64,000 bases of DNA, taken from the NCBI GenBank assembly GCA_002408465.1, contig DHSM01000016.1, positions 10,836-74,835 of the forward strand, written 5' to 3'. The notes under the pieces are model-generated. The model had not been told where the DNA came from, ran no database searches, and saw nothing but the letters and a program-made list of their open reading frames with translations. This DNA comes from Firmicutes bacterium UBA5286 (lineage in GTDB: Bacteria; Bacillota; Proteinivoracia; UBA4975). Every line of letters begins with the position of its first letter. Within the stretch, counting starts at the first letter, position 1. The position numbers and the translations under genes were made by a program. Shown here one piece after another: positions 2,019 through 62,812 of this stretch.

Positions 2019-4406
2019 GTGGTAAGACAAGGGTATTTCAAATCTCTGGCGGTATTTGTCGTGCTGGCCCTGGTGTTTTCTGTGGCCGGCATTGGAGCCG
2101 CGGCCAGGCCGGCTGAGCCCTTTCAGTTTGCTGAACTCTATGGCAAGTATGACTTCACTTCTGAGGAGATCGTCACAATCATTGTTGAGCTGGATGCAGT
2201 GTCAATGATTGAGGCGAAACATACCGGCGTCAGTCAGAGTTTGGGCAAACTCAAGGCCGAAAGGGACAGAATTATTGCGGCTCTAAGTTCCATTACCGAT
2301 GTGCAGGTGAACAGGGATTATTCCCATGTCTTCTCAGGAATGTCTTTGAATCTCCGGGAAGACATGATTCCTGCGCTGCTGGCCATCCCGGGAGTAAGAG
2401 CTGTGTATCCGAATGTTGAATACACAGTGACCACGGGGGAAATGAGTTTCACCGAAGTGCCGGAAATGATCTACACAGCTCCGTATATTGGGGCTGAGCG
2501 GGCATGGAATGAACTGGGCTTTACCGGTCAGGGCATTACCGTCGCCGTCATTGACACCGGCTGCGATTACACCCACCCCGATTTAGTCCACGCCTTTGGA
2601 GATTATAAGGGCTGGGATTTCGTGGATAATGATGACGATCCCCAGGAAACTCCGCCGGGCATTATTCCGGAAGGGGAAACCGCCCATGGCACCCATGTAT
2701 CCGGGACCATTGCCGCCAATGGACTGATTAAAGGGATTGCCCCTGAGGCCAAGCTGTTGGCTTACCGTGTCCTGGGTCCCGGAGGCTCAGGCTATACGAC
2801 TGATGTGGTTGCAGGAATTGAGCGGGCTGTATTAGACGGGGCCGATGTCATGAATCTGTCTCTGGGAAATACCATCAATGACCCCGACTGGGCCACCAGC
2901 ATTGCTTTGGATTGGGCAATGGCAGAAGGTGTGGTGGCAGCCACCTCTAACGGCAATTCCGGCCCCGATAACTGGACTGTGGGCTCCCCGGGCACTTCCC
3001 GGCAGGCGATATCTGTAGGTGCCACAGTCCTGCCCAAGGACTTCTTCGCTCCTGGTATCTTTACCTCTGAGGGAGTTGTCTACAGCAGTTTTGAAATAAT
3101 GGGCTATACCGACCCAGCAGATGTAATGGCTTTAGACGGCAATGAGTATGAATTTGTCTATGCTGGCCTGGGAGGGGTCGATGATGTTGCCGGCCTGGAT
3201 TTGACGGGCAAAGTCGCCTTGATCCAGCGGGGAACCTATACTTTCCTGGACAAGGCAGCCAATGCCGCCGCTGCAGGCGCTGTTGCCGCAATAATCTTCA
3301 ACAATGCCGCCGGTGAAATCGGTTCCACCGTTGGCGGCATGGTCATCCCCACCTTTAAAATGTCTGGATTGGATGGGGTGGCCATGTATCAGGAAATGAT
3401 TGTCGGCAACAACAAGGTCACCTTTACCATGGATTATCTGGGCTGTATGGAGAGCGTAGCTGATTTCTCTTCCAGAGGCCCTGTGGTGGCCACCTGGATG
3501 ATCAAGCCTGACGTCTGCGCCCCCGGGGTGGACATCATCAGCACTGTGCCCACCCACAACCCTGCGGCTCCCCACGGCTATGCAATTTACCAGGGGACCA
3601 GCATGTCTTCTCCCCATGTGGCCGGAGCCGCCGCCCTCTTGGCAGAGGCTCATCCCGACTGGAGCGTAGACGATATCAAGGCCGCCCTGATGAATACGGC
3701 GGTAGGGTTGACAGATCCTTATACAGGCGCTCCCTACCCCCACAACACCCAGGGCGCCGGCAGCATCAGGGTTGACAAGGCCATTGAGACCAAGACTTTG
3801 GTGGCTCCGGGCAGCTATTCCTTTGGCGTGTTTGATAAGGCCAAGGGCAAGCAAGCAGAAAGGCAGAGCTTTGCAATCAAGAACCTCTCCGACCAGCGGG
3901 TGCAATTTTCCCTTGATGTTCAGTTCCCCGATGGCATCAAGGTAAACGCCAGCAAAAATCTCAATGTTGGCCCCGGAAAAACCCAACAGGTGGACCTGCT
4001 GGTGCAAGTAGACGCCTCGGCGCTGGCGCCTGGCTATTACGAGGGAGTAATTATGCTCAGTGCCGGGGAAGAGGAAATACGGGTGCCGGCAATCCTTTTC
4101 GTCGGCGACCCCGATTATCCCCTGCTGGGCGGCGCAGGCCTGGCGGATTTTGGAGATCAGTACCTGATTGAGCTTTACTTGCCCGGAGGGGCCGATGCGG
4201 TATTCCTGGATTTGTATACTCTGGATGTACAGCCGGTAGCGGAATTAATTGAAGACTATAATGTTCCTGCCGGGTATGCGGAGTACTACTGGGATAAGAC
4301 TGCCTCTGGCCAAGAATTGCCCCCTGGAACCTATTACATGGTCGCCTTTATTTATAAAGGCGACAGGGCAGAGGGCTGGATATTGGATGAAGTAGTGGTT
4401 CCGTAA
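2019..4406 (+). CDS. Secreted S8 subtilase, Vpr-like (signal peptide, I9 propeptide, PA insert, C-terminal Ig-like domains)
   Basis: Catalytic triad VAVIDTG / HGTHVSG / GTSMSSPHVAG; PA motif GKVALIQRG. Confidence 0.93.
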   Translation: MVRQGYFKSLAVFVVLALVFSVAGIGAAARPAEPFQFAELYGKYDFTSEEIVTIIVELDAVSMIEAKHTGVSQSLGKLKAERDRIIAALSSITDVQVNRDYSHVFSGMSLNLREDMIPALLAIPGVRAVYPNVEYTVTTGEMSFTEVPEMIYTAPYIGAERAWNELGFTGQGITVAVIDTGCDYTHPDLVHAFGDYKGWDFVDNDDDPQETPPGIIPEGETAHGTHVSGTIAANGLIKGIAPEAKLLAYRVLGPGGSGYTTDVVAGIERAVLDGADVMNLSLGNTINDPDWATSIALDWAMAEGVVAATSNGNSGPDNWTVGSPGTSRQAISVGATVLPKDFFAPGIFTSEGVVYSSFEIMGYTDPADVMALDGNEYEFVYAGLGGVDDVAGLDLTGKVALIQRGTYTFLDKAANAAAAGAVAAIIFNNAAGEIGSTVGGMVIPTFKMSGLDGVAMYQEMIVGNNKVTFTMDYLGCMESVADFSSRGPVVATWMIKPDVCAPGVDIISTVPTHNPAAPHGYAIYQGTSMSSPHVAGAAALLAEAHPDWSVDDIKAALMNTAVGLTDPYTGAPYPHNTQGAGSIRVDKAIETKTLVAPGSYSFGVFDKAKGKQAERQSFAIKNLSDQRVQFSLDVQFPDGIKVNASKNLNVGPGKTQQVDLLVQVDASALAPGYYEGVIMLSAGEEEIRVPAILFVGDPDYPLLGGAGLADFGDQYLIELYLPGGADAVFLDLYTLDVQPVAELIEDYNVPAGYAEYYWDKTASGQELPPGTYYMVAFIYKGDRAEGWILDEVVVP

Positions 4407-52142: not shown

Positions 52143-52223
52143 AAAAGGTATTCTGCTTTTGATGTCGTAATCTAAAAGTGTTTATTTGAATTAGGTGTCA
52201 AACCAAGCGGAGGAGTGGAAAAT

Positions 52224-53261
52224 ATGGCTAATACAATGAAGGCCCTGGTCAAACATGACAGGGCAGAGGGCGCCAGGCTGGAGCAAGTCCCTGTCCCCTC
52301 ACCCAAGACAGGAGAAGTATTAGTAAAAGTCACCGCCACAGCTATCTGCGGCACAGATATTCACATTTACCAGTGGAATAAATGGGCACAGAGAAGAATC
52401 AAGCCGCCTCTGGTCTTTGGCCATGAGTTTTGCGGCGAGGTTGTGGCCCTGGGGGCAGGGGTGGACGACATTGCCCTTGGCACCCGGGTCAGCGCTGAAG
52501 GGCATTTTGTTTGCGGGAAATGTTATTTTTGCCGCACCGGCCAGGCTCACATCTGTCAGGATGTGGAGATAATCGGCGTGGATACTAATGGCTGTTTTGC
52601 AGAATATGTAAGAGTGCCCCGGGGCAATATCTGGGAGCTGGATGCTGAAATCCCCACAGAAGTGGCCGCCATCCACGACCCCTTTGGCAATGCCGTTCAC
52701 ACCGCCTTGGTGGATTCCCTCGTGGGCAACACTGTGCTCATTACCGGTTGCGGCCCCATAGGAATCATCGCTGCGGCTATCGCCAAAAAGGCAGGGGCCA
52801 GTAAGGTATTTGCCAGCGATTTGAATGATTACCGTTTGGATCTGGCCAAGAAAATGGGGGCAGACAAGGTCTACAAAGTGGGCCGGGATGATGTAGTGGC
52901 TGGTGTGCTTAAGGAAACCCACGGCCTGGGTGCAGATGTGCTCCTGGAAATGGCCGGCCATCCCTCCTCCATCAATGACGGGCTCAAGGCTCTGCGCAAA
53001 GGGGGCTGGGCGGCTTTGCTGGGGCTTCCTGCCAGCCCGGTTGAGGTGGACCTTGCCGACCAGGTTATCTTCAAGGGAATTAAAATTTACGGCATCAACG
53101 GGCGGCGCATGTTTGACAACTGGTACATGATGCAGGCTCTGCTTCGGGGCGGCCTGGATCTAACCCCAATGATCACTCACCGCTTTAAATTTGAAGAGTT
53201 TGAACAAGCTTTTGAGTTGGCCATCAGCGGCAACAGCGGCAAGATCATTCTCTACCCTTAA
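52224..53261 (+). CDS. tdh: L-threonine 3-dehydrogenase
   Basis: [22 protein letters not shown]; adjacent to kbl. Confidence 0.92.
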
Positions 53262-53280
53262 GATCTGGAAAGGAGAAATT

Positions 53281-54459
53281 ATGGATACCAACAAATTGAA
53301 TTTCATTGAACCTGAACTTAATGAGCTGAAGGAAAAGGGCCTGTACAAAAATATCCGCACCATTCAATCTGCTCAAGGCGCCTGGGTGGAAATAGACGGC
53401 CGGAGAGTCCTGAACTTTTGTTCCAACAACTATTTGGGTTTTGCAGCCGACGAGCGGATCAAGGCTGCAGCCAAAGGGGCCATTGACAAGTACGGTGTCG
53501 GCCCGGGCGCCGTCCGCACCATTGCCGGCACCATGACCATCCATCAGGAACTGGAGCGGGAACTGGCTGATTTTAAAGGCGTTGAAGCCTGCCTTACTGT
53601 CCAGTCCGGTTATAATGCCAACTTGTGCGCAATTCCGGCACTGGTGGGCAAGGAAGACACCATAGTCAGCGATGAGCTCAATCATGCCAGCATTATCGAC
53701 GGCGCCCGCCTCAGCCGGGCCAAAGTAAAGGTTTATCCTCACAATGACATGGAAGGACTGGAAAAGGTCCTGCAGGGCGACCTGCAAGGCCGGGTCCTCA
53801 TCATCACTGACGGAGTCTTCAGCATGGACGGTGACATCGTCCCCCTGCCGGAGATAGTCAGGCTGGCCAAGAAGTACGGGGCTATGACTATGGTGGACGA
53901 CGCCCACGGGGAAGGCGTGCTGGGCCGGTCAGGCCGGGGGATTGTCGACCATTTTCGCCTCCATGGCCAGGTAGACGTTGAAGTGGGCACTTTTTCCAAG
54001 GCTCTGGGCGTAATGGGTGGATGCATAGCGGGCAGCGCTGCCATCGTCGAGTATATTAAACAAAAAGCTCGGCCCTTTACCTTTAGTTCCGCCCTGACGG
54101 TGCCTGATACCGCCGCCACCCTGGCGGCTGTTAGGATTTTGCAACAGAGCGGCGAACTGGTGGAACGCCTGTGGGAAAACGCCAGGATCTTCAAAGCCGG
54201 TTTGCAGAAGCTTGGTTTTAATACCGGCGTGACAGAGACTCCCATTACCCCGGTGATGATTGGTGATGCCCGGGATTCTTCGGAATTCAGCAAACGCTTG
54301 TTTAAAGAAGGCATTTTTGCTTCCACCATTGGCTTTCCTCTAGTAGCTGAAGGCAAGGCCAGAATCCGGGTCATGCTCTCAGCGGCCCACAGTCAGGAAG
54401 ACCTGGACTTTGCCCTGGATGTATTCGGAAAAGTGGGCAAGGACATGAAACTGATCTAG
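53281..54459 (+). CDS. kbl: Glycine C-acetyltransferase (2-amino-3-ketobutyrate CoA ligase)
   Basis: [31 protein letters not shown]; terminator 54467-54498. Confidence 0.92.
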
Positions 54460-54531
54460 TCACAAGAAACCCTCCCTCTCACTTGGGAGGGCTTTTTTAA
54501 ATTACAAAGTATTTCATAATTGTATCATTGC

Positions 54532-54980
54532 AGGAATGCTGAGATGTGACGTTGAATAAAAGCCGAAATACTACAATATACTGTATCAGTCCCTGACAAA
54601 GCCGATGACTTTGGCAAAGAGATCTGAGATCTTTGAAAATTAAATAATCCATCCCTTAATAATAGCAGAATTTGTGGAGTATTTACTGCCAGGTTTTTCG
54701 GTTTTTCTAAAGCCTGCGCTGCAGCCAAGTATAACCAGATTCAGGTTCTTGACTATGCTAAAGTGGTAAAGTATAATTGTAGGCAGGTGGGAAACAAAAA
54801 ATAATACGCCAAAAATCCTAAAAAGAACAATGGAAAAACAGAATAAGGGGTTTTATTCGACAAGGGACTTGACTGCTTTTTTCTTTTTAGTATAATAAGG
54901 GACAAGCTAAATCATTATTCACGCAGTGCCTTATGATTTTCTTCCCTCTAAAAGCAGGAATTTCATCCTTAGCGTCGAAT
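54532..54980 (+). promoter_or_regulatory. Promoter stack for opp operon: 2 sigmaA, 2 sigmaH, 1 Spo0A box
   Basis: AGGA-18-GAAT 54532; TTGACT-17-TATAAT 54749; TGTCGAA (minus) 54856-54862; TTGACT-16-TATAAT 54869; AGGA-17-GAAT 54956. Confidence 0.7.
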
Positions 54981-55079
54981 ATAGATAAGTGAACATTTGC
55001 AAGCCCTTATTTCCATTGGTTTTAGAGCGGCTAACGCCGCCTAAAATATAGATTACATTTTATCAAGGGAGGAAACGAA

Positions 55080-56897
55080 ATGAAAAGGCTTTTGGTACTA
55101 GTGCTGGCAACGGCTTTGGTCGCTGTCTCACTGGTAGGTTGCACACCCAACTCTACCTCAGGCACTATGATTGTAGGCAGCCCTGCAATTTCCGGCGACT
55201 TTATCTACGGATTTGGCAACAGCTCCTATGACAAGTGGGTAAAGGATCTCACAGGCGGGTTTATGGGCACCCATTATGTTACCGCTGACGGTGCCTACGC
55301 TGTGAATGAGACCGTTGTCAAAGATTTAAAAATCGACAAAGATGCTGATGGCAACAAAACGTACACCTATGAATTGCAGCAAGATCTTAAGTGGAATGAT
55401 GGCGAACCTATTACAGCCAAAGACTATGTCTTCACCCTCCTCTGGGAAGCTTCTCCTGAATGGGCAGGCGCGGGCGCCACTTCCTCCAATGGAGACGGAC
55501 TCGTGGGTTACGAAGCATACCATGAAGGCGATTCTAAAGTATTTGCAGGCGTCAAACTTATCGAGGACTATAAATTTTCAGTCACCATCGATGCGGAACA
55601 GCTCCCCTATTTCTACGAAGTTGAATACGGATCCTGCAGGCCTCTTCCCATGCACGCATGGACTGTAAAGGCCGCTATCGAATCCGATGAAAATGGCTCA
55701 CAGCTAACCACCACTGCTGAAACTGAAGAGTGGACCTTAAAATATGGCACCAAGCGTATTTCTCAGACCGAACGCTTCGCGCCTACAGTAACCTGTGGCC
55801 CTTACAACTTTGTCAGCTTTGAAAACAACGCTGTCACCTTAAAGGCCAACCCGGAATTCAAGGGCGATTGGGCTGGCAAGAAACCTCAGCTTGAATTCGT
55901 CATCATCAAGTATATCAACCAGGATACTGACGTGGACCAGGTTATCAACGGCTCCGTTGACGCTGTAGTCGGTGTCATTGAAGCTGAAAAGATTGAAAAA
56001 GCCAGAAACGATGCAAACACCAAGTTCACTGATTATCCCCGTAATGGTTACGGCGGTGTATTCTTCCACTGTGACTTCAGCCCCACCAATGACCCCAACG
56101 TCCGCAAGGCTCTGGCCTATCTGATGGACCGCGATGAGATTCTCAAGAACGTCATTGGCGGCTATGGCTCTACTGTCAATGGCATGTATGGTTTCGCCCA
56201 GTGGATGTACAAGGACAACAAGGAGGCTATCGATAATCTGCCTAACTTGGTCCTAAACCAAGACTATGCCAATGACCTGCTGGATGAAACTGAATGGGTA
56301 TACGACAAGGATGGTAATGCATTCGACCGTTCCAAGGCCACGAAAGACGGCGGCTACTTCCGCTACAACAAAGAAGGCAAACCTTTGGTTGTTGAGCACC
56401 TTGGAAGCGAAGATAACAACGTCACCGACAACGTTGAAATTCAATGGAAAGCTAATTGCCCCTACGCTGGTATCGACTTCCGCCTTACTCGTTGTGACTT
56501 CTCCAAGCTTCTCAAACACTACTATGGCGGATTCGATCTAGGAGCTGAAAGGCAGTACAACAGCTTTAACTTGGCCACCGGCTTTACAGCAACTTTCGAC
56601 CCCTACTATGACTATCACTCCAAGTTCTACCATCAAATGTACATGCAGACTGAACAACTCAAAGATGACAGAATGGACGAAATCACTGTCAGGATGAGAA
56701 GGTACGAGCCCGAACAGAAACAAGAATACTCAGCTGCATGGTTGGAATTCCAGCAACTGTGGAATGAACTGCTTCCCGTAATTCCACTGTACTCCAACCA
56801 ATACCATGACATCTACAGGGGCAAGCTTAGCGGCTTCAACACCAACCCCTACCATGACTGGACAGATATTATCTGCCAGATCTCTAAAACAAAATAG
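55080..56897 (+). CDS. oppA: Oligopeptide/family-5 ABC substrate-binding lipoprotein
   Basis: Lipobox LVGC; LKWNDGEPITAKD, GPY, VRKAL; hairpin terminator 56923-56961. Confidence 0.88.
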   Translation: MKRLLVLVLATALVAVSLVGCTPNSTSGTMIVGSPAISGDFIYGFGNSSYDKWVKDLTGGFMGTHYVTADGAYAVNETVVKDLKIDKDADGNKTYTYELQQDLKWNDGEPITAKDYVFTLLWEASPEWAGAGATSSNGDGLVGYEAYHEGDSKVFAGVKLIEDYKFSVTIDAEQLPYFYEVEYGSCRPLPMHAWTVKAAIESDENGSQLTTTAETEEWTLKYGTKRISQTERFAPTVTCGPYNFVSFENNAVTLKANPEFKGDWAGKKPQLEFVIIKYINQDTDVDQVINGSVDAVVGVIEAEKIEKARNDANTKFTDYPRNGYGGVFFHCDFSPTNDPNVRKALAYLMDRDEILKNVIGGYGSTVNGMYGFAQWMYKDNKEAIDNLPNLVLNQDYANDLLDETEWVYDKDGNAFDRSKATKDGGYFRYNKEGKPLVVEHLGSEDNNVTDNVEIQWKANCPYAGIDFRLTRCDFSKLLKHYYGGFDLGAERQYNSFNLATGFTATFDPYYDYHSKFYHQMYMQTEQLKDDRMDEITVRMRRYEPEQKQEYSAAWLEFQQLWNELLPVIPLYSNQYHDIYRGKLSGFNTNPYHDWTDIICQISKTK

Positions 56898-57157
56898 AGA
56901 TACCCCGGCCAATCGCTAGAGTAAAAGAAAGAGGGATGGCATCTGCTATCCCCTTTCTTTTATCAAATTAACTTTTTATATCAATGGCTATTTTGAGAAA
57001 ATTTGTGTTTTGTGCCAATTGTTTCCGCCTCCATTTATTTGTTTTTGTGTTTTGTGAGCGCTGCAAATTGTTAGAATCAGTTCCTCATACCCTCTTTCGG
57101 AAAACCCGAAAGCTTGATGATAATTCGATAATACCGTATAAAGGAGGCTGTGTTAAT

Positions 57158-58129
57158 GTGTTAAGGTACCTTGCGAAAAGGTTGATTTCGATGATTCCCG
57201 TCGTAATAGCCATCACTATCGTAGTTTTCGGGATGGTTAAGGCCATGCCCGGCGATCCCGCTGCCATGATGATCAACCCTGCCTTGAAAGAAGAACAAAG
57301 AATAGCTGCATATAACGCCATGAGAGAAAAGCTTAGCCTTGACAAACCCTTGCCGGTTCAATATGTAAAATGGGTGGCTGCTACAGTCCAGGGCGATTTG
57401 GGCTGGTCGGCCATGAACAATCGGCCGGTAAGAGATGTGATTTTAGAGCCCCTGAAGAATACCCTTATTCTTAATGTTTTTGTCACTGTTTTTCAGATTG
57501 CTATTATCTTGCCTATTGGCGTAATGATGGCAGTCAAGCGCGGTTCGTTTATGGACAGGTTTTGGCAAGTCTTTTCTTTGGTAGGTTATTCAATGCCGTC
57601 TTTCTTTATTGGACTATCTCTCATTTTTTTATTGGCACTGAAACTAAAATGGCTGCCCCCGGGCGGGATGCCAATATCTGCCTATGGAAAAAACTTCGCT
57701 TATTATGTTTCTTGGTTGAAATATTTGATTCTGCCCACGTTGAGCTTAACAATTATCAGTATTGCCGGTGCCATCCGCTATGTGCGCAATGCTATGATTG
57801 AAGCCCTTGATCAGGACTATATCAGGACTGCCCGTTCTAAAGGTCTTCCTGAAAAGGTTGTCATCTATTCTCATGCTTTCCGTAATGCGTTAATCCCCAT
57901 TTCTACCATCATAATTATGAGCGTTTTTGCAATGCTCAGCGGTTCCGCCATTACTGAGCAAGTGTTTGCATGGAAGGGAATCGGTCACACTTTGGTTTTA
58001 GCTTTGAATAACCGGGATTATATGCTGGTAATAGCCCTTAACCTGCTGAGCACAATGCTGGCAATTACCGCCAACATTGTCGCTGATATAACCTATGGAA
58101 TTGTCGATCCCCGGATTAAGCTGGAATAG
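57158..58129 (+). CDS. oppB: Opp-type permease B
   Basis: PGDP, DYIRTARSKGL, HAFRNALIP, D..YG.VDPRI; GTG 57158 with RBS. Confidence 0.92.
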   Translation: MLRYLAKRLISMIPVVIAITIVVFGMVKAMPGDPAAMMINPALKEEQRIAAYNAMREKLSLDKPLPVQYVKWVAATVQGDLGWSAMNNRPVRDVILEPLKNTLILNVFVTVFQIAIILPIGVMMAVKRGSFMDRFWQVFSLVGYSMPSFFIGLSLIFLLALKLKWLPPGGMPISAYGKNFAYYVSWLKYLILPTLSLTIISIAGAIRYVRNAMIEALDQDYIRTARSKGLPEKVVIYSHAFRNALIPISTIIIMSVFAMLSGSAITEQVFAWKGIGHTLVLALNNRDYMLVIALNLLSTMLAITANIVADITYGIVDPRIKLE

Positions 58130-58140
58130 GGAGTGATATA

Positions 58141-60030
58141 ATGGAAAACAAAACAGTTCCCGAGCCTGTTAAGGAGTCAACAGGCGCCAAACTTGGCAAA
58201 TCTTTCGGCTCCATGTTTAAGCGCTTGTTTATCAGGGAAAAGGATCACCTCTCTGTTTTAGAAGAAGAAGCCCTGCAGACTCCGACACAAACAGTATTTA
58301 AGAATTTTGTCCGGACCAGACTGGGAGTTGTTGGCGTCATCGCCTTTATCCTGATCATGCTTTTTTCTTTTGTGGGTTCGCAGCTGCGGCCTATAGATGA
58401 GTCTTATCAGGAACCGGCTCTGTCTAATATCCGCCCCGGAGCCAACTACCTGAAGTACCCCGCCCAAATCGTCAAGGAAGGGGTTAAAGAAATTTCTTCG
58501 GGGATTTCCTACTCTGTGGCCCTCACCAATGAAGGCAATGTCTATGCCTGGGGAAAACAGCCGATATATCTCAGTGGAATGTCCACCAGCGTTTTTAATT
58601 TTCCTGCCGGTTTTAAGCAAGGTCAGATTGCCCATATAGCAGCGGGTGACCGCTTTTGGGTTGCTTTATCTGAAGACGGAGAATTTTATGGCCTGGGTTA
58701 TAACAACTTTAAACAGGCAGAGTTGCCTGAAGAAGCAAAGGAGAAAATGCAGTCTTCCTCCGTCAAACAGTTGCTTGCTGGGGAAGGTGTTACCGGCATC
58801 CTCTTTGAGGATGGTGAAATCTTTATCTGGGGAAGCACCATGTCTACCCGTCAGGACAATGTTCCCAAGGAATACCAGGGGAGAATTGTCCATGCTGAGT
58901 TTACTTCGCTTAATGTTGTCGTCCTTTTGGATGACGGCACTATAGGTGTCTTTGGCGTAAGTGGCAATGAACTTTCTCTTATTCCTGCAGAACTTACTGA
59001 TGGCAGTGTTGAAGTGGTTGCTTTCACCACTTCCGGCCGCGCAGCTTTGGCTCTTGATTCTACAGGCAAACTGCATGTTTGGGGGAGCCGCTTGCATGAC
59101 ATTCTTCAAATCCCCGATTTTGAGGGAAAAGTTGTGGATTTGTTCGGCGGCAAGAATAATTTCGGCGTTTTGCTGGACAATGGCCAGGTCATTTACTGGG
59201 GAGCAAATCACTTTAATCAGCTGGCTTTTCCCAAAGCGATGAAATCTGCCAATTACGTTTCAGTATATTCTGACATGTTTCAGAGTTATGCTGTAGCTGA
59301 GGATGGCAATGTCACTGCCTGGGGTCATAAGGGCTTTGTCTTCGGTTCAGACCAGTTCGGCCGGGATAATTTGACCCGCCTTATTCACGGCGGCCGTATC
59401 TCCCTTACTGTCGGCGCCATCGCCATGATTATATCGGTTATTATCGCCCTGTTTATTGGCTTGGTTTCCGGCTACTTTGGCGGCTGGTTGGACAATCTCC
59501 TCATGCGTATTACTGACGTAGTTATCTCGATTCCCTTTATGCCTTTGGCTATTACCCTTTCGACAATTGTCACTGGCCGTGTGCCGGAAATGTACCGGAT
59601 CTATATGATTATGGTTATCTTGGGCTTTCTCAACTGGCCTGGCCTTGCCCGCCTCATCCGGGCACACTTGCTGCTGGAAAGAGAGAAAGACTTTGTCCTG
59701 GCGGCAAGGGCTTTGGGTGTCAAGCAGAGAAATATCATGGTCAGGCATATATTGCCCAACATTTTTAACTTGGTCATTGTCAACGTGACCTTGGGTTATG
59801 CCGGTGCATTGCTTATGGAATCTGCGTTGTCTTTCCTCGGTTTCGGCGTCTCGCCCCCAACTCCTTCCTGGGGCAATATGTTAGACTCGGCCCAGAGCTC
59901 TACTGTCATCCAGTACTACTGGTGGAGATGGGTTATCCCTGGATTAGCTGTGATCTTTGCGGCTCTTAGCGTCAACCTCATCGGTGATGCCCTGCGAGAC
60001 GCAATGGATCCAAAAGCAAGTGAGAAATAG
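58141..60030 (+). CDS. oppC: Opp-type permease C with inserted RCC1-like beta-propeller
   Basis: GSDQFGRD, FV.AARALG, HILPN, PPTPSWG; seven G-x-x-x-x-x-L/V-x-x-x-G-x-V-x-x-WG-like repeats in the first extracellular loop. Confidence 0.9.
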   Translation: MENKTVPEPVKESTGAKLGKSFGSMFKRLFIREKDHLSVLEEEALQTPTQTVFKNFVRTRLGVVGVIAFILIMLFSFVGSQLRPIDESYQEPALSNIRPGANYLKYPAQIVKEGVKEISSGISYSVALTNEGNVYAWGKQPIYLSGMSTSVFNFPAGFKQGQIAHIAAGDRFWVALSEDGEFYGLGYNNFKQAELPEEAKEKMQSSSVKQLLAGEGVTGILFEDGEIFIWGSTMSTRQDNVPKEYQGRIVHAEFTSLNVVVLLDDGTIGVFGVSGNELSLIPAELTDGSVEVVAFTTSGRAALALDSTGKLHVWGSRLHDILQIPDFEGKVVDLFGGKNNFGVLLDNGQVIYWGANHFNQLAFPKAMKSANYVSVYSDMFQSYAVAEDGNVTAWGHKGFVFGSDQFGRDNLTRLIHGGRISLTVGAIAMIISVIIALFIGLVSGYFGGWLDNLLMRITDVVISIPFMPLAITLSTIVTGRVPEMYRIYMIMVILGFLNWPGLARLIRAHLLLEREKDFVLAARALGVKQRNIMVRHILPNIFNLVIVNVTLGYAGALLMESALSFLGFGVSPPTPSWGNMLDSAQSSTVIQYYWWRWVIPGLAVIFAALSVNLIGDALRDAMDPKASEK

Positions 60031-60041
60031 GGGGTGAGAAA

Positions 60042-61037
60042 ATGAGTTTACTTGAAATAAATAACCTGCACACCTATTTTGATACCCGCAGAGGTTTAAT
60101 TAAGGCTGTTAACGGGGTCTCATTGAGTGTGGACGGGGGCAAGACTATGGGTATTGTCGGTGAATCCGGCAGCGGCAAGAGCCAGATGGCCCTTAGTATC
60201 CTCCAACTGTTTGAATCCAACCAGAAAATATATGAGGGCGAAATTTATTTCGATGGCCGTTTGATCTCAAACTTGAAGCAAGAAGAACTATACGAGATTC
60301 GTGGTAATGCCATTTCAATGATCTTCCAGGAACCCATGACCTCTCTCAATCCTGTTTTCAACGTCAGCAGGCAGATCAGCGAGGTGCTCATGCTACACCA
60401 AGGTCTGAGCAAGAAACAGGCCCACGAGCAATCCATTGAAATGCTGCGGGCTGTGAAAATTCCTAATCCTGAAGAGGTCGTCCTGCAATACCCCCACCAA
60501 CTTTCCGGGGGAATGCGGCAACGGGTTATGATTGCTATTGCCTTGGCCTGCAGGCCAAAGTTGCTCATTGCCGATGAACCTACTACAGCTTTGGACGTTA
60601 CCATCCAGGCTCAGATTTTGCGCCTGATGAATGAACTAAAGGACGATTTTAACGCTTCGATTATGTTTATTACCCATGACCTGGGGGTTATAAACCAGAT
60701 GGCCGACGATGTCGCTGTAATGTATTGCGGCCAGGTAGTGGAAACTGCACCGGTGGACTATATCTTCAAAAACCGCGACAAGTATTCCCACCCCTATACC
60801 GAGGCTCTGCTGGTTTCTATCCCGCTGCTCAGCGGCAATCAGGGCGACCGCTTAGAGGCAATCCCAGGCGCCGTTCCCCATCCTTTGGACTTGCCTCCCG
60901 GCTGCAAATTCGCTCCCCGCTGCAAATACGCCACTGCCCGCTGCCATCAGGAAGAGCCTGACTTGGTTTCCGTCAGCGATGTGCAGGCGGTCAGATGTTT
61001 CTATCCTCAGAAGGGAGTGAGAAACAGTGGAGAATAA
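60042..61037 (+). CDS. oppD: Opp-type ATPase D
   Basis: GESGSGKS, FQEPMTSLNP, YPHQLSGGMRQR. Confidence 0.94.
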   Translation: MSLLEINNLHTYFDTRRGLIKAVNGVSLSVDGGKTMGIVGESGSGKSQMALSILQLFESNQKIYEGEIYFDGRLISNLKQEELYEIRGNAISMIFQEPMTSLNPVFNVSRQISEVLMLHQGLSKKQAHEQSIEMLRAVKIPNPEEVVLQYPHQLSGGMRQRVMIAIALACRPKLLIADEPTTALDVTIQAQILRLMNELKDDFNASIMFITHDLGVINQMADDVAVMYCGQVVETAPVDYIFKNRDKYSHPYTEALLVSIPLLSGNQGDRLEAIPGAVPHPLDLPPGCKFAPRCKYATARCHQEEPDLVSVSDVQAVRCFYPQKGVRNSGE

Positions 61038-62559
61038 AAAACCTCTAATTCGCATTGAGCACCTGACTCATTATTTCCCCCTCAAAAAGAAGTCTATCTT
61101 TCAGCGTGAGCAATACTATGTGCGGGCAAATGAAGATATTTCTTTAAATATCTATGAGGGTGAAACCTTCGGCCTGGTCGGCGAAAGCGGCTGCGGCAAA
61201 TCCACTTTGGGCCGGGTAATTCTCCAATTGTATACCCAGACTTCGGGCACAATTCTCTATTACGGCAAAACCTTGGAAGAGTTTAAGCCCAAGTATGTCA
61301 AGAAAACTATCAACTACCTGCCAAGGATTGTGGCCAGGTACAATGAATTGGCAGCAGAATTGGGCGACGATTTTGAGGAGAAAGCTAAAGAGAACAAGGG
61401 CATCAGAAAAGTCGTTGTCAGATATGCTGATGCCGTCCGCATTGCCGGCGGCTTGGTTCTGGCAGACGATCTCAATGAAGTTTCCCGGGTGCTGCGGGAA
61501 GAATATGATGCCGGTTCCGCCTACTTTGCCCTCACTCACAAGCTGGGAGACGTAACCTTAAAGCGGGATACTTTAGTGGCCAAAGAGGTCAAGACTGGCG
61601 ACGATCAAAAGCACCTGGACCAGCTTAACAGTGAAATCGAAATTTTGACTGCTAAGAAAGATGCACTTAAGGCTGTTCTGGATGAAAAGCTGGCAGCCCT
61701 TCAAGCTTTGCGGGAGCGTGTTTCCAGCAAAGAGGGATTTGCCGCGGTAGACGCCAAGCAAGACGAGGGAATCGACCTGGCCCAGCTGACCTCTGAGGAG
61801 ATGCGGGTTCTCCGTCGGGAACTCCAGGTTATTTTCCAGGACCCCTATTCTTCATTGAACCCCCGCCTTACCGTCGGCCAAGTAATAAGCGAGGCCCTGA
61901 CTGCGCATAATATCTTTAAGTCGGGAACTGCGATTCTGGAAAAATACGTTGTCGACTTGATGGAAAAGTGCGGTCTCCAGCATTATATGCTTCACCGTTA
62001 TCCCCACCAGTTTTCCGGCGGCCAGCGGCAGCGTATCGGCATTGCCCGGGCCCTGGCGGTTATGCCCCAGTTTGTGGTCTGTGATGAGGCCGTCAGCGCT
62101 TTAGACGTATCCATTCAGTCTCAGATTATCAACTTGCTGATTGATCTGAAAGAACAGGAAAAACTCACCTATCTCTTTATTTCCCATGACCTCAGCACTG
62201 TCAAATTCATCAGCGACCGCATCGGCGTCATGTACCTGGGTTCTCTGGTTGAGCTGACCAGCTCTGAAGTAATCTTTAAGGATCCCCTTCATCCCTATAC
62301 CGAAGCTCTGATGGAAGCTATCCCCACTACCGAGGATGAATCCAGGAAAGACTTGGTTACCATTGAAGGAGATATCCCCAGTCCCATCAATCCGCCCAGC
62401 GGCTGCAAGTTCCACACCCGGTGCAAGTATGCTACCGATAAGTGCAAGGAAGTTGTGCCGGAGTGGAAAGAACTGAAACCCGGACATTTCGTTGCCTGCC
62501 ACTATCCACTGGACAGAGGTGAAATACTTGTTCAAAAGACTAAGGGAGCGTCTGCCTAA
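61027..62559 (+). CDS. oppF: Opp-type ATPase F with about 165-aa helical insertion
   Basis: GESGCGKS, FQDPYSSLNP, YPHQFSGGQRQR; insert after Walker A region. Confidence 0.92.
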   Translation: MENKKPLIRIEHLTHYFPLKKKSIFQREQYYVRANEDISLNIYEGETFGLVGESGCGKSTLGRVILQLYTQTSGTILYYGKTLEEFKPKYVKKTINYLPRIVARYNELAAELGDDFEEKAKENKGIRKVVVRYADAVRIAGGLVLADDLNEVSRVLREEYDAGSAYFALTHKLGDVTLKRDTLVAKEVKTGDDQKHLDQLNSEIEILTAKKDALKAVLDEKLAALQALRERVSSKEGFAAVDAKQDEGIDLAQLTSEEMRVLRRELQVIFQDPYSSLNPRLTVGQVISEALTAHNIFKSGTAILEKYVVDLMEKCGLQHYMLHRYPHQFSGGQRQRIGIARALAVMPQFVVCDEAVSALDVSIQSQIINLLIDLKEQEKLTYLFISHDLSTVKFISDRIGVMYLGSLVELTSSEVIFKDPLHPYTEALMEAIPTTEDESRKDLVTIEGDIPSPINPPSGCKFHTRCKYATDKCKEVVPEWKELKPGHFVACHYPLDRGEILVQKTKGASA

Positions 62560-62734
62560 AAAACACAGCCCGGAAGAAGTCGAAGACCACTTTCGCAAGC
62601 TCGAAGGCATAGGCGGGCTGGAAAAGAACGATTATAAGGCAATGATTCTCGCTGCTTTTCTTACCCTTGGTCTGCCGCTGCTGGCAATGATAGCAGTGAT
62701 TTACGGCAGCATCTACTTGTTATTTCTTCGTTAA
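62552..62734 (+). CDS. Small single-TM protein closing the opp operon (apparent CTG start)
   Basis: CTGCCTAA overlaps oppF stop; LEKNDYKAMILAAF..TM; followed by terminator 62743-62779. Confidence 0.55.
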   Translation: MPKKHSPEEVEDHFRKLEGIGGLEKNDYKAMILAAFLTLGLPLLAMIAVIYGSIYLLFLR

Positions 62735-62812
62735 AAATTTTACAATCCATACCTTGTCTTTTTCAGGTATGGATTTTTTTGTCCTGAGCAGACGGTGACA
62801 GTTTGCGAAAGG

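Follow-up and report, generated by a model that had tools for sequence, protein, structure and literature searches.

The oppC gene of a 64,000-nucleotide stretch of DNA from Firmicutes bacterium UBA5286 (contig DHSM01000016.1; the whole stretch is referred to as the window) encodes an oligopeptide permease subunit with a complete seven-bladed RCC1/BLIP-II-like beta-propeller inserted in its first extracytoplasmic loop. The gene is referred to here as oppC-RCC1. Gram-positive Opp systems feed the cell and import signalling peptides. To our knowledge, folded accessory domains on the outer faces of ATP-binding cassette (ABC) importer permeases are rare, and the P2 loop of MalF is the main studied case. 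The OppC-RCC1 family would represent a second, unrelated solution, in which a protein-binding propeller is mounted on an Opp permease. Such an extra outward binding module could alter the choice of captured molecules or the coupling between capture and transport. No paper on the combination of an RCC1/BLIP-II propeller with an Opp permease was found in the literature, and none was found by title or abstract in the broader literature on OppC extracellular loops and cryo-electron microscopy. Neither was a function study of the OppC propeller found in the literature searched; the propeller-bearing Opp permease is apparently an undescribed variant of a known importer type. Public records name the OppC-RCC1 proteins merely "ABC transporter permease subunit".

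The oppC product is the OppC-type permease subunit of a type I ABC importer of the Opp/Dpp class (PepT family). All sequence and structure tests agree with this assignment, named equivalogs aside. The gene and its parts are listed below (aa, amino acids; TM, transmembrane helix; PDB, Protein Data Bank).

58141..60030, + strand: oppC-RCC1, OppC-type permease of 629 aa with an inserted propeller (Pfam, NCBIfam, PDB sequence search, AlphaFold2, Foldseek).
58321..58383, + strand: TM1 of OppC, aa 61-81 (hydropathy, model helix, Pfam OppC_N).
58456..59331, + strand: seven-bladed RCC1/BLIP-II-like beta-propeller, aa 106-397, in the first extracytoplasmic loop (DSSP strands, Foldseek, Pfam RCC1_2).
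59344..59367, + strand: GSDQFGRD motif, aa 402-409, the canonical OppC/DppC motif directly before TM2, at which homology to insert-less OppC restarts.
59368..60027, + strand: core membrane domain of OppC, TM2-TM6 with the EAA-type coupling loop EREKDFVLAARALG (Pfam BPD_transp_1, Foldseek DppC/OppC).

The N-terminal tail before TM1 is basic, with 11 K/R in 62 aa. TM1 has a hydropathy peak of 2.73 at aa 61-79, corresponds to a model helix at aa 60-82, and is covered by the Pfam family OppC_N (PF12911; aa 47-94, 25.9 bits, cut-off 23.9). The next hydrophobic helix begins at aa ~424. BPD_transp_1 (PF00528) matched aa 437-626 with 104.8 bits (cut-off 26.4). In the family alignment, G402, D404, and G407 of the GSDQFGRD motif are invariant, R408 and D409 are at least 90% conserved, and the EAA-type loop (EREKDFVLAARALG..ILPN) is conserved. 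The core membrane domain is 95% identical to that of the closest relatives. DppC and OppC chains were aligned to aa 393-626 in the PDB sequence search. With Foldseek, the C-terminal part matched 8z1w_B, 8j5q_C, and 8z21_B (E 1e-16 to 1e-15, target-normalised TM-score 0.65-0.71). The NCBIfam models Opp4C, DppC, OppC, and NikC aligned solely from aa ~378-400 onward. Opp4C (NF045476) was the best equivalog, with 314.7 bits against a cut-off of 350, and Opp3C, DppC, NikC, GsiD, and others scored far below their cut-offs; hence, the protein is not an equivalog of any named system. The source genome (2.2 Mb, 97% complete) carries four OppC paralogues, of which oppC-RCC1 is the only one with the insert.

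The canonical proteins (Escherichia coli OppC 8z21_B and DppC 8z1v_B, Mycobacterium tuberculosis OppC 8j5q_C) share with the window protein TM1 (OppC_N), the G[ST]D..GRD motif, the BPD_transp_1 core, and the EAA-type loop. The membrane core of the window protein is 38-40% identical to E. coli OppC/DppC and 32-35% identical to the mycobacterial chains, at a TM-score of 0.63-0.71. It differs from all of these in ~295 extra residues in the TM1-TM2 loop, which form the seven-bladed propeller. The initial annotation had sited an insert of this size between TM1 and GSDQFGRD, at 58441-59330 (OppC aa 101-397), and its siting was borne out. It was also right that this loop is short in canonical OppC/DppC, given that the canonical proteins have 300-302 aa and the closest insert-less relatives 302-307 aa.

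Both the repeat signature and the fold assign the insert to the RCC1/BLIP-II propeller superfamily. The seven repeats quoted in the initial annotation were all located, at aa 120-138, 168-186, 213-231, 255-272, 298-315, 336-354, and 377-395, and in the family alignment each of the seven ends in WG or G. Pfam RCC1_2 scored 65.6 bits (cut-off 22) and RCC1 22.1 bits (cut-off 21.7). The whole-domain model PF25390 (WD40_RLD) reached 102.6 bits (E 3.8e-29), under its 150-bit gathering score; the insert is shorter than eukaryotic RLDs and is similar in size to BLIP-II. BLIP-II, HERC2, UVR8, and RCC1 were matched when the PDB was searched with the insert sequence. An AlphaFold2 model of OppC was built from an alignment of 39 family members. 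Its mean predicted local distance difference test (pLDDT) was 84.4 and its predicted TM-score (pTM) 0.77, with pLDDT >90 over aa 110-400. In the model, the DSSP strands of the insert form seven groups of three, that is, seven blades. The best Foldseek matches of the insert in the PDB were BLIP-II chains (3qhy_B, 3qi0, and 1jtd_B; E 2-5e-18, BLIP-II-normalised TM-score 0.81-0.85, 25-26% identity), followed by UVR8, RPGR, the ACR4 ectodomain, HERC2, and RCC1. Pfam, the AlphaFold2 model, and Foldseek thus concur on a complete seven-bladed propeller, and the structural check that had been proposed for the insert returned this fold with BLIP-II as the top match. The propeller is free of cysteine and net acidic.

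BLIP-II of Streptomyces exfoliatus (1jtd_B, 3qhy_B, 3qi0) is also a direct sequence match to the insert (E 1.5e-12). Both are compact, extracytoplasmic, seven-bladed RCC1-like propellers with blades of ~40 aa. They differ in that BLIP-II is a free secreted binder of class A beta-lactamases, whereas the propeller of the window protein is built into the chain of a membrane permease. No evidence links the insert to nucleotide exchange, the function of RCC1, or to beta-lactamase inhibition, that of BLIP-II, and family-wide conservation is confined to scaffold residues.

The placement of the propeller outside the membrane is supported by homology to solved OppC/DppC topology. The E. coli DppBCDF and DppABCDF structures have six helices per permease, and the TM1-TM2 region is periplasmic (PMC12136057); the propeller in this region would therefore face outward. 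In E. coli DppABCDF, DppA caps both permeases, and the periplasmic TM1-TM2 regions, which differ between the two subunits, contact DppA (PMC12136057). By homology, the OppC propeller would lie outside the membrane and adjoin the docking site of OppA. The linkers flanking the propeller (aa 82-113 and 397-412) have pLDDT values of 85-93. Because both linkers are modelled with high confidence (at the pTM given above), the model treats the propeller as rigidly attached and not as a domain on a loose tether.

The taxonomic survey suggested in the initial annotation was carried out, and the architecture proved to be that of a family present in at least 79 species. A search with the insert yielded ~70 clusters of proteins of 600-660 aa with the same architecture and insert identity down to 29-30%; below these came unrelated RCC1 proteins (identity 23-24%). 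When one genome per species was scanned, at least 79 loci were obtained, all with a full-length insert and oppABCDF synteny. Named carriers include Erysipelothrix inopinata, E. urinaevulpis, Dielma fastidiosa, Copranaerobaculum intestinale, Massilicoli timonensis, and Anaerorhabdus. Further carriers are many Anaerococcus (among them A. vaginalis ATCC 51170 and A. octavius NCTC 9810), Peptoniphilaceae, metagenome-assembled genomes of Oscillospiraceae, and uncultured Bacillota. In an even sample of the source phylum, OppC-RCC1 was present in 11 of 401 genomes and 6 of 277 genera; the architecture is rare and patchy within the phylum. A census with an insert-only profile against 1.84 billion representatives was abandoned as a source of counts. 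Its best 150 matches were giant multi-RCC1 proteins of 1,400-7,200 aa, so it gave no number of OppC fusions. Three loci (L009, L022, and L061) are labelled as uncultured Bacteroides sp. or Treponemataceae. These bins are probably mislabelled or contaminated, because their OppC falls inside an Oscillospiraceae subclade from the same study.

A tree of the membrane core was built from 67 insert-bearing and 29 insert-less OppC sequences. The closest complete insert-less OppC is at most 53% identical in the membrane core. All 67 insert-bearing sequences fell in one clade with a Shimodaira-Hasegawa-like approximate likelihood ratio (SH-aLRT) support of 100, in which one insert-less member (P0295) is nested. 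The propeller was thus acquired once, in the ancestor of a clade now found in Erysipelotrichaceae, Peptoniphilaceae, Oscillospiraceae, and uncultured Bacillota. P0295 is an OppC of 378 aa on a 1.5-kb metagenome contig; it stands beside P0064 in the tree and has a loop of ~55 aa at the propeller site. It is probably a secondary loss, that is, a natural propeller deletion.

The propeller is kept under purifying selection across numerous anaerobic Gram-positives. The ratio of nonsynonymous to synonymous substitution (dN/dS) between the window gene and its two closest relatives was 0.075-0.097 in the propeller as against 0.026-0.043 in the membrane core, values that are approximate because dS is saturated. 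All seven blades are kept in 67 of 68 sampled clade members, down to 30% identity. The conserved residues of the propeller are the G, W, and P of the blade scaffold. No conserved surface motif or patch stands out in the family alignment, and the surface varies. In one genome of the same family as the source genome (G370:C1:1056810-1057731), the propeller region lies in two adjacent frames of 257 and 412 aa, which suggests that this oppC is frameshifted or split; it was the only split copy seen.

oppC-RCC1 sits in a self-contained six-gene operon on the + strand, in the order oppA, oppB, oppC-RCC1, oppD, oppF, and a small membrane gene. A family-5 binding protein, OppB, and two oligo_HPY ATPases are shared with canonical Opp/Dpp operons, and the gene order is kept in the at least 79 loci. 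The binding protein is encoded first.

55080..56897, + strand: oppA, family-5 substrate-binding lipoprotein of 605 aa with the lipobox LVGC at aa 18-21 (Pfam SBP_bac_5, E 5.5e-42).

RCC1/BLIP-II propellers are protein-binding modules, and candidate partners were sought among the neighbours by clustering all open reading frames (ORFs) of at least 120 aa in the at least 79 loci. Among these ORFs, the five opp genes alone were generally conserved; the small membrane gene, found separately, was the only other conserved neighbour. Beyond the opp genes, no conserved neighbour encoding a secreted partner was found in these loci, nor a conserved regulator gene, nor a conserved beta-lactamase or penicillin-binding protein gene. 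A lipobox was present in every full-length OppA ORF of the related loci, in 69 of 76 ORFs by automatic pattern and in that of L057 by eye; the remaining six ORFs are all cut at contig ends. OppA is always present and always lipid-anchored, and hence is close to the propeller. By exclusion among the conserved neighbours, OppA is the most likely propeller partner. The window OppA is nearest to the NCBIfam model Opp4A, although far under its cut-off, and its best solved relative is OppA 9p48.

Some features of OppA differ across the family. Mature OppA ranges from 574 to 731 aa (median ~608). OppA of the Anaerococcus clade is ~130 aa longer than the window OppA, and three Anaerococcus loci (L068, L075, and L077) carry two tandem oppA genes of ~735-748 aa each 5' of oppB. 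Three short segments of OppA (aa 202-209, 219-229, and 413-428 of the window protein) occur only in the propeller clade and are a weak lead at such divergence. As for the cargo, genes for M3 oligoendopeptidases adjoin the operon in 13 and 6 loci (for example, L007:14964-16649 and L005:1860-3656), and one locus (L088:10814-11422) has an adjacent pyroglutamyl peptidase (C15) gene. The substrates of the transporter are probably oligopeptides, as judged from these intracellular peptidase neighbours.

The function that we favour, at somewhat less than an even chance, is that of a docking platform for lipoprotein OppA beside the OppA landing site, comparable to the MalF-P2 loop. In the E. coli MalFGK2-MalE complex, the P2 loop of MalF is a folded extracytoplasmic domain in a permease loop, located beside the binding-protein docking site. 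The OppC propeller, too, is a folded domain carried on the outside by a loop of a type I importer permease. MalF-P2 differs in its unrelated Ig-like fold, its size (~180 aa), its position in the TM3-TM4 loop, and its permease family; the likeness would be one of functional analogy and not of homology. On the docking model, the propeller would stand rigidly attached on the outer face of the translocator, beside the site at which OppA lands on OppB/OppC. As a platform for protein binding, it would keep OppA in place or orient it. Peptide capture may thereby be coupled more tightly to the opening of the translocation path, as MalF-P2 holds MalE. The variable surface of the propeller fits the docking model, because variation is expected if the partner co-varies. 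The "augmented peptide-capture machine" of the initial annotation is accordingly worded here as a hypothesis and not as a result.

Several points weigh against docking of OppA. The lipid anchor already tethers OppA, and no platform is required for retention alone. The transporter may work without a propeller, because the nested member P0295 lacks it. An oversized OppA was considered as the reason for the propeller and was rejected for the window: the mature OppA (~585 aa) is no larger than expected from the insert-less sister operons, whose OppA precursors have 586-601 aa, so the propeller is not explained by OppA size here. A mirror-tree test was performed, in which partial correlations of pairwise distances between operon parts were calculated for 58 taxa. 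The raw correlations were 0.3-0.9 with saturated distances. The propeller-OppA residual carried no specific signal (partial r 0.06), and the highest residual, 0.35, was that between the propeller and an insert in OppF (described below), both being values from saturated distances without a significance test.

One alternative is that the propeller docks a different partner outside the cell, for instance a protease, peptidase, or cell-wall hydrolase that is secreted or wall-bound, and that the peptides it releases are handed straight to the importer. The extracellular domain of FtsX, which holds hydrolase activators, provides an analogy. The binding of proteins by RCC1/BLIP-II propellers speaks for this alternative, as does the best structural match, BLIP-II, which binds class A beta-lactamases. 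The window also encodes a subtilase, which was the protease candidate of the initial annotation.

2019-4406: S8 subtilase with a PA domain, 795 aa.

This gene lies ~52 kb from the opp operon. The proposed link to the S8 protease did not hold up, there being no genomic linkage, and the protease was rejected as a linked partner. The lack of a conserved secreted-partner gene beside the operon counts against this alternative in general, and the unconserved propeller surface fits a single conserved external partner poorly. We consider it unlikely.

It is similarly unlikely that the propeller binds cargo or envelope material. At the OppA-permease entrance it would pre-bind long peptides or peptidoglycan fragments, filter them by size, or form a seal for them. 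The top faces of propellers commonly bind small ligands and peptides, which favours such a role. A DppB loop in the DppABCDF complex closes off the cavity beneath DppA so that released peptide does not escape, which indicates that such loops can act on cargo handling (PMC12136057). However, no conserved pocket-like residues were found in the propeller, in which the scaffold G, W, and P alone are invariant, and OppA is kept everywhere as the obvious substrate receptor.

A further alternative involves the second ATPase, which also carries an insert.

61027..62559, + strand: oppF, ATPase of 510 aa (Pfam ABC_tran in two stretches and oligo_HPY).
61267..61767, + strand: helical insert of OppF, ~165 aa (aa 81-247), in the nucleotide-binding domain (NBD), flanked by the strand that follows Walker A and by the Q-loop (alignment gap against solved OppF/DppF; model).

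Canonical Opp systems lack this 165-aa helical insert in OppF. It was modelled as four long helices (aa 98-232, pLDDT >90); outside it, OppF superposes on E. coli OppF 8z21_D with a Foldseek TM-score of 0.90. The window OppF matches the NCBIfam models of mollicute OppD/OppF with large NBD inserts (MMSYN1_0167 and MMSYN1_0168) in stretches on either side of the insert, so an enlarged Opp ATPase has precedent in relatives of the Erysipelotrichia. The mollicute OppC model (MMSYN1_0166, 307 positions) has no propeller. A long OppF NBD was found in 56 of 72 related loci and was lacking in 16. The two deepest branches of the clade have a long OppF (534 and 511 aa), and the four insert-less sister operons lack both the OppF insert and the propeller (OppF 323-341 aa). 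This places the origin of the two inserts on a single branch. DppC pairs with DppF in the E. coli structure (PMC12136057). By homology, OppF would be the partner ATPase of OppC, and the two inserts would thus be on the same half of the transporter.

On this basis the propeller could be a sensor input that modulates the OppC-OppF half, with the four-helix insert of OppF as the cytoplasmic regulatory or output module. The common branch of origin, the OppC-OppF pairing by homology, and the highest residual distance correlation all point in this direction. Nevertheless, 12 of 58 tree members with known OppF length have lost the OppF insert and kept the propeller, the losses falling in one derived Oscillospiraceae subclade and one other locus. 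No conserved regulator gene lies nearby, and the residual correlation came from saturated distances without a significance test. We regard a sensor role as improbable. A stronger version, in which the outer propeller and the inner OppF insert jointly sense and regulate across the membrane on one transporter half, making it a "transceptor" rather than a plain importer, is very doubtful, and we give as little credence to its corollary that an external protein or ligand on the propeller would gate ATPase activity or signal inward via the OppF insert.

Finally, a structural add-on without a specific ligand (to stabilise the complex or as a spacer from the thick wall) or a tolerated historical accident would agree with the lack of a conserved surface patch and with the short loop in place of the propeller in nested P0295, but is very improbable given the low propeller dN/dS (~0.08-0.10), the retention of all seven blades in nearly all sampled clade members (67/68, down to 30% identity), and the single split copy (G370).

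Docking of OppA and its alternatives can be examined at the bench, because the family occurs in cultured strains. These include D. fastidiosa JC13, A. vaginalis ATCC 51170, A. octavius NCTC 9810, E. inopinata DSM 15511, C. intestinale, and M. timonensis. Two natural controls are available, namely, the member that lost the propeller and the subclade with the propeller and without the OppF insert.

The other genes and signals of the operon are as follows.

54470-54491: terminator-like hairpin of the upstream kbl gene, preceding the promoter-like sites.
54749-54777 and 54869-54896, + strand: two promoter-like sites 5' of oppA, each with 11 of 12 consensus positions (consensus matches only).
56933..56952, + strand: stem-loop with a T-rich tail between oppA and oppB, 8 pairs of which 5 are G-C (pattern match only).
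57158..58129, + strand: oppB, permease, with a probable GTG start at 57158 after AGGAGG (Pfam BPD_transp_1_N and BPD_transp_1).
60042..61037, + strand: oppD, ATPase of 331 aa with an oligo_HPY C-terminal domain containing four Cys (Pfam ABC_tran and oligo_HPY; NCBIfam OppD subfamily match).
62528..62734, + strand: small single-pass membrane protein, 68 aa from TTG 62528 after GAGGTG, with an LEKxD..AM.IAAF motif followed by a TM helix.
62747..62780, + strand: terminator-like hairpin CCATACC...GGTATGG with a T run at the operon end (read from the sequence).

A riboswitch or leader RNA 5' of oppA was sought at 54300-55200 as a clue to the substrate; none was found, with nothing near the gathering score. 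The hairpin between oppA and oppB is possibly a partial terminator and could lead to an excess of oppA transcript over those of the membrane subunits. The mechanical ORF of oppB starts at 56984, and NCBIfam Opp4B aligns from aa 60 of this ORF. The hairpin at the operon end was missed by the hairpin scan, probably owing to a loop longer than the scan allows.

The longest ORF of the small membrane gene starts at 62492 and has 80 aa. No Pfam family matched its product. A homologue lies directly 3' of the second ATPase gene in all 61 related loci with enough sequence; this ATPase gene is oppF in most loci and oppD in some Erysipelothrix loci. The possibility that the small protein is specific to the propeller variant was ruled out: homologues follow oppF in three of the four insert-less sister operons, so the gene belongs to a wider Opp subfamily. 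The protein could be an unrecognised sixth subunit of this subfamily.

The C-terminal oligo_HPY domains of OppD and OppF each keep four Cys. In E. coli DppD and DppF, [4Fe-4S] sites have been reported in the matching four-Cys C-terminal domains (PMC12136057). The OppF alignment of an Erysipelothrix clade (L039, L043, L047, and L053) is without most of the C-terminal domain Cys. Directly 5' of the operon, the window carries a tdh-like (threonine dehydrogenase) and a kbl-like (2-amino-3-ketobutyrate CoA ligase) gene at 52215-54459, a neighbourhood that is common only to the closest relatives (L001 and L003).

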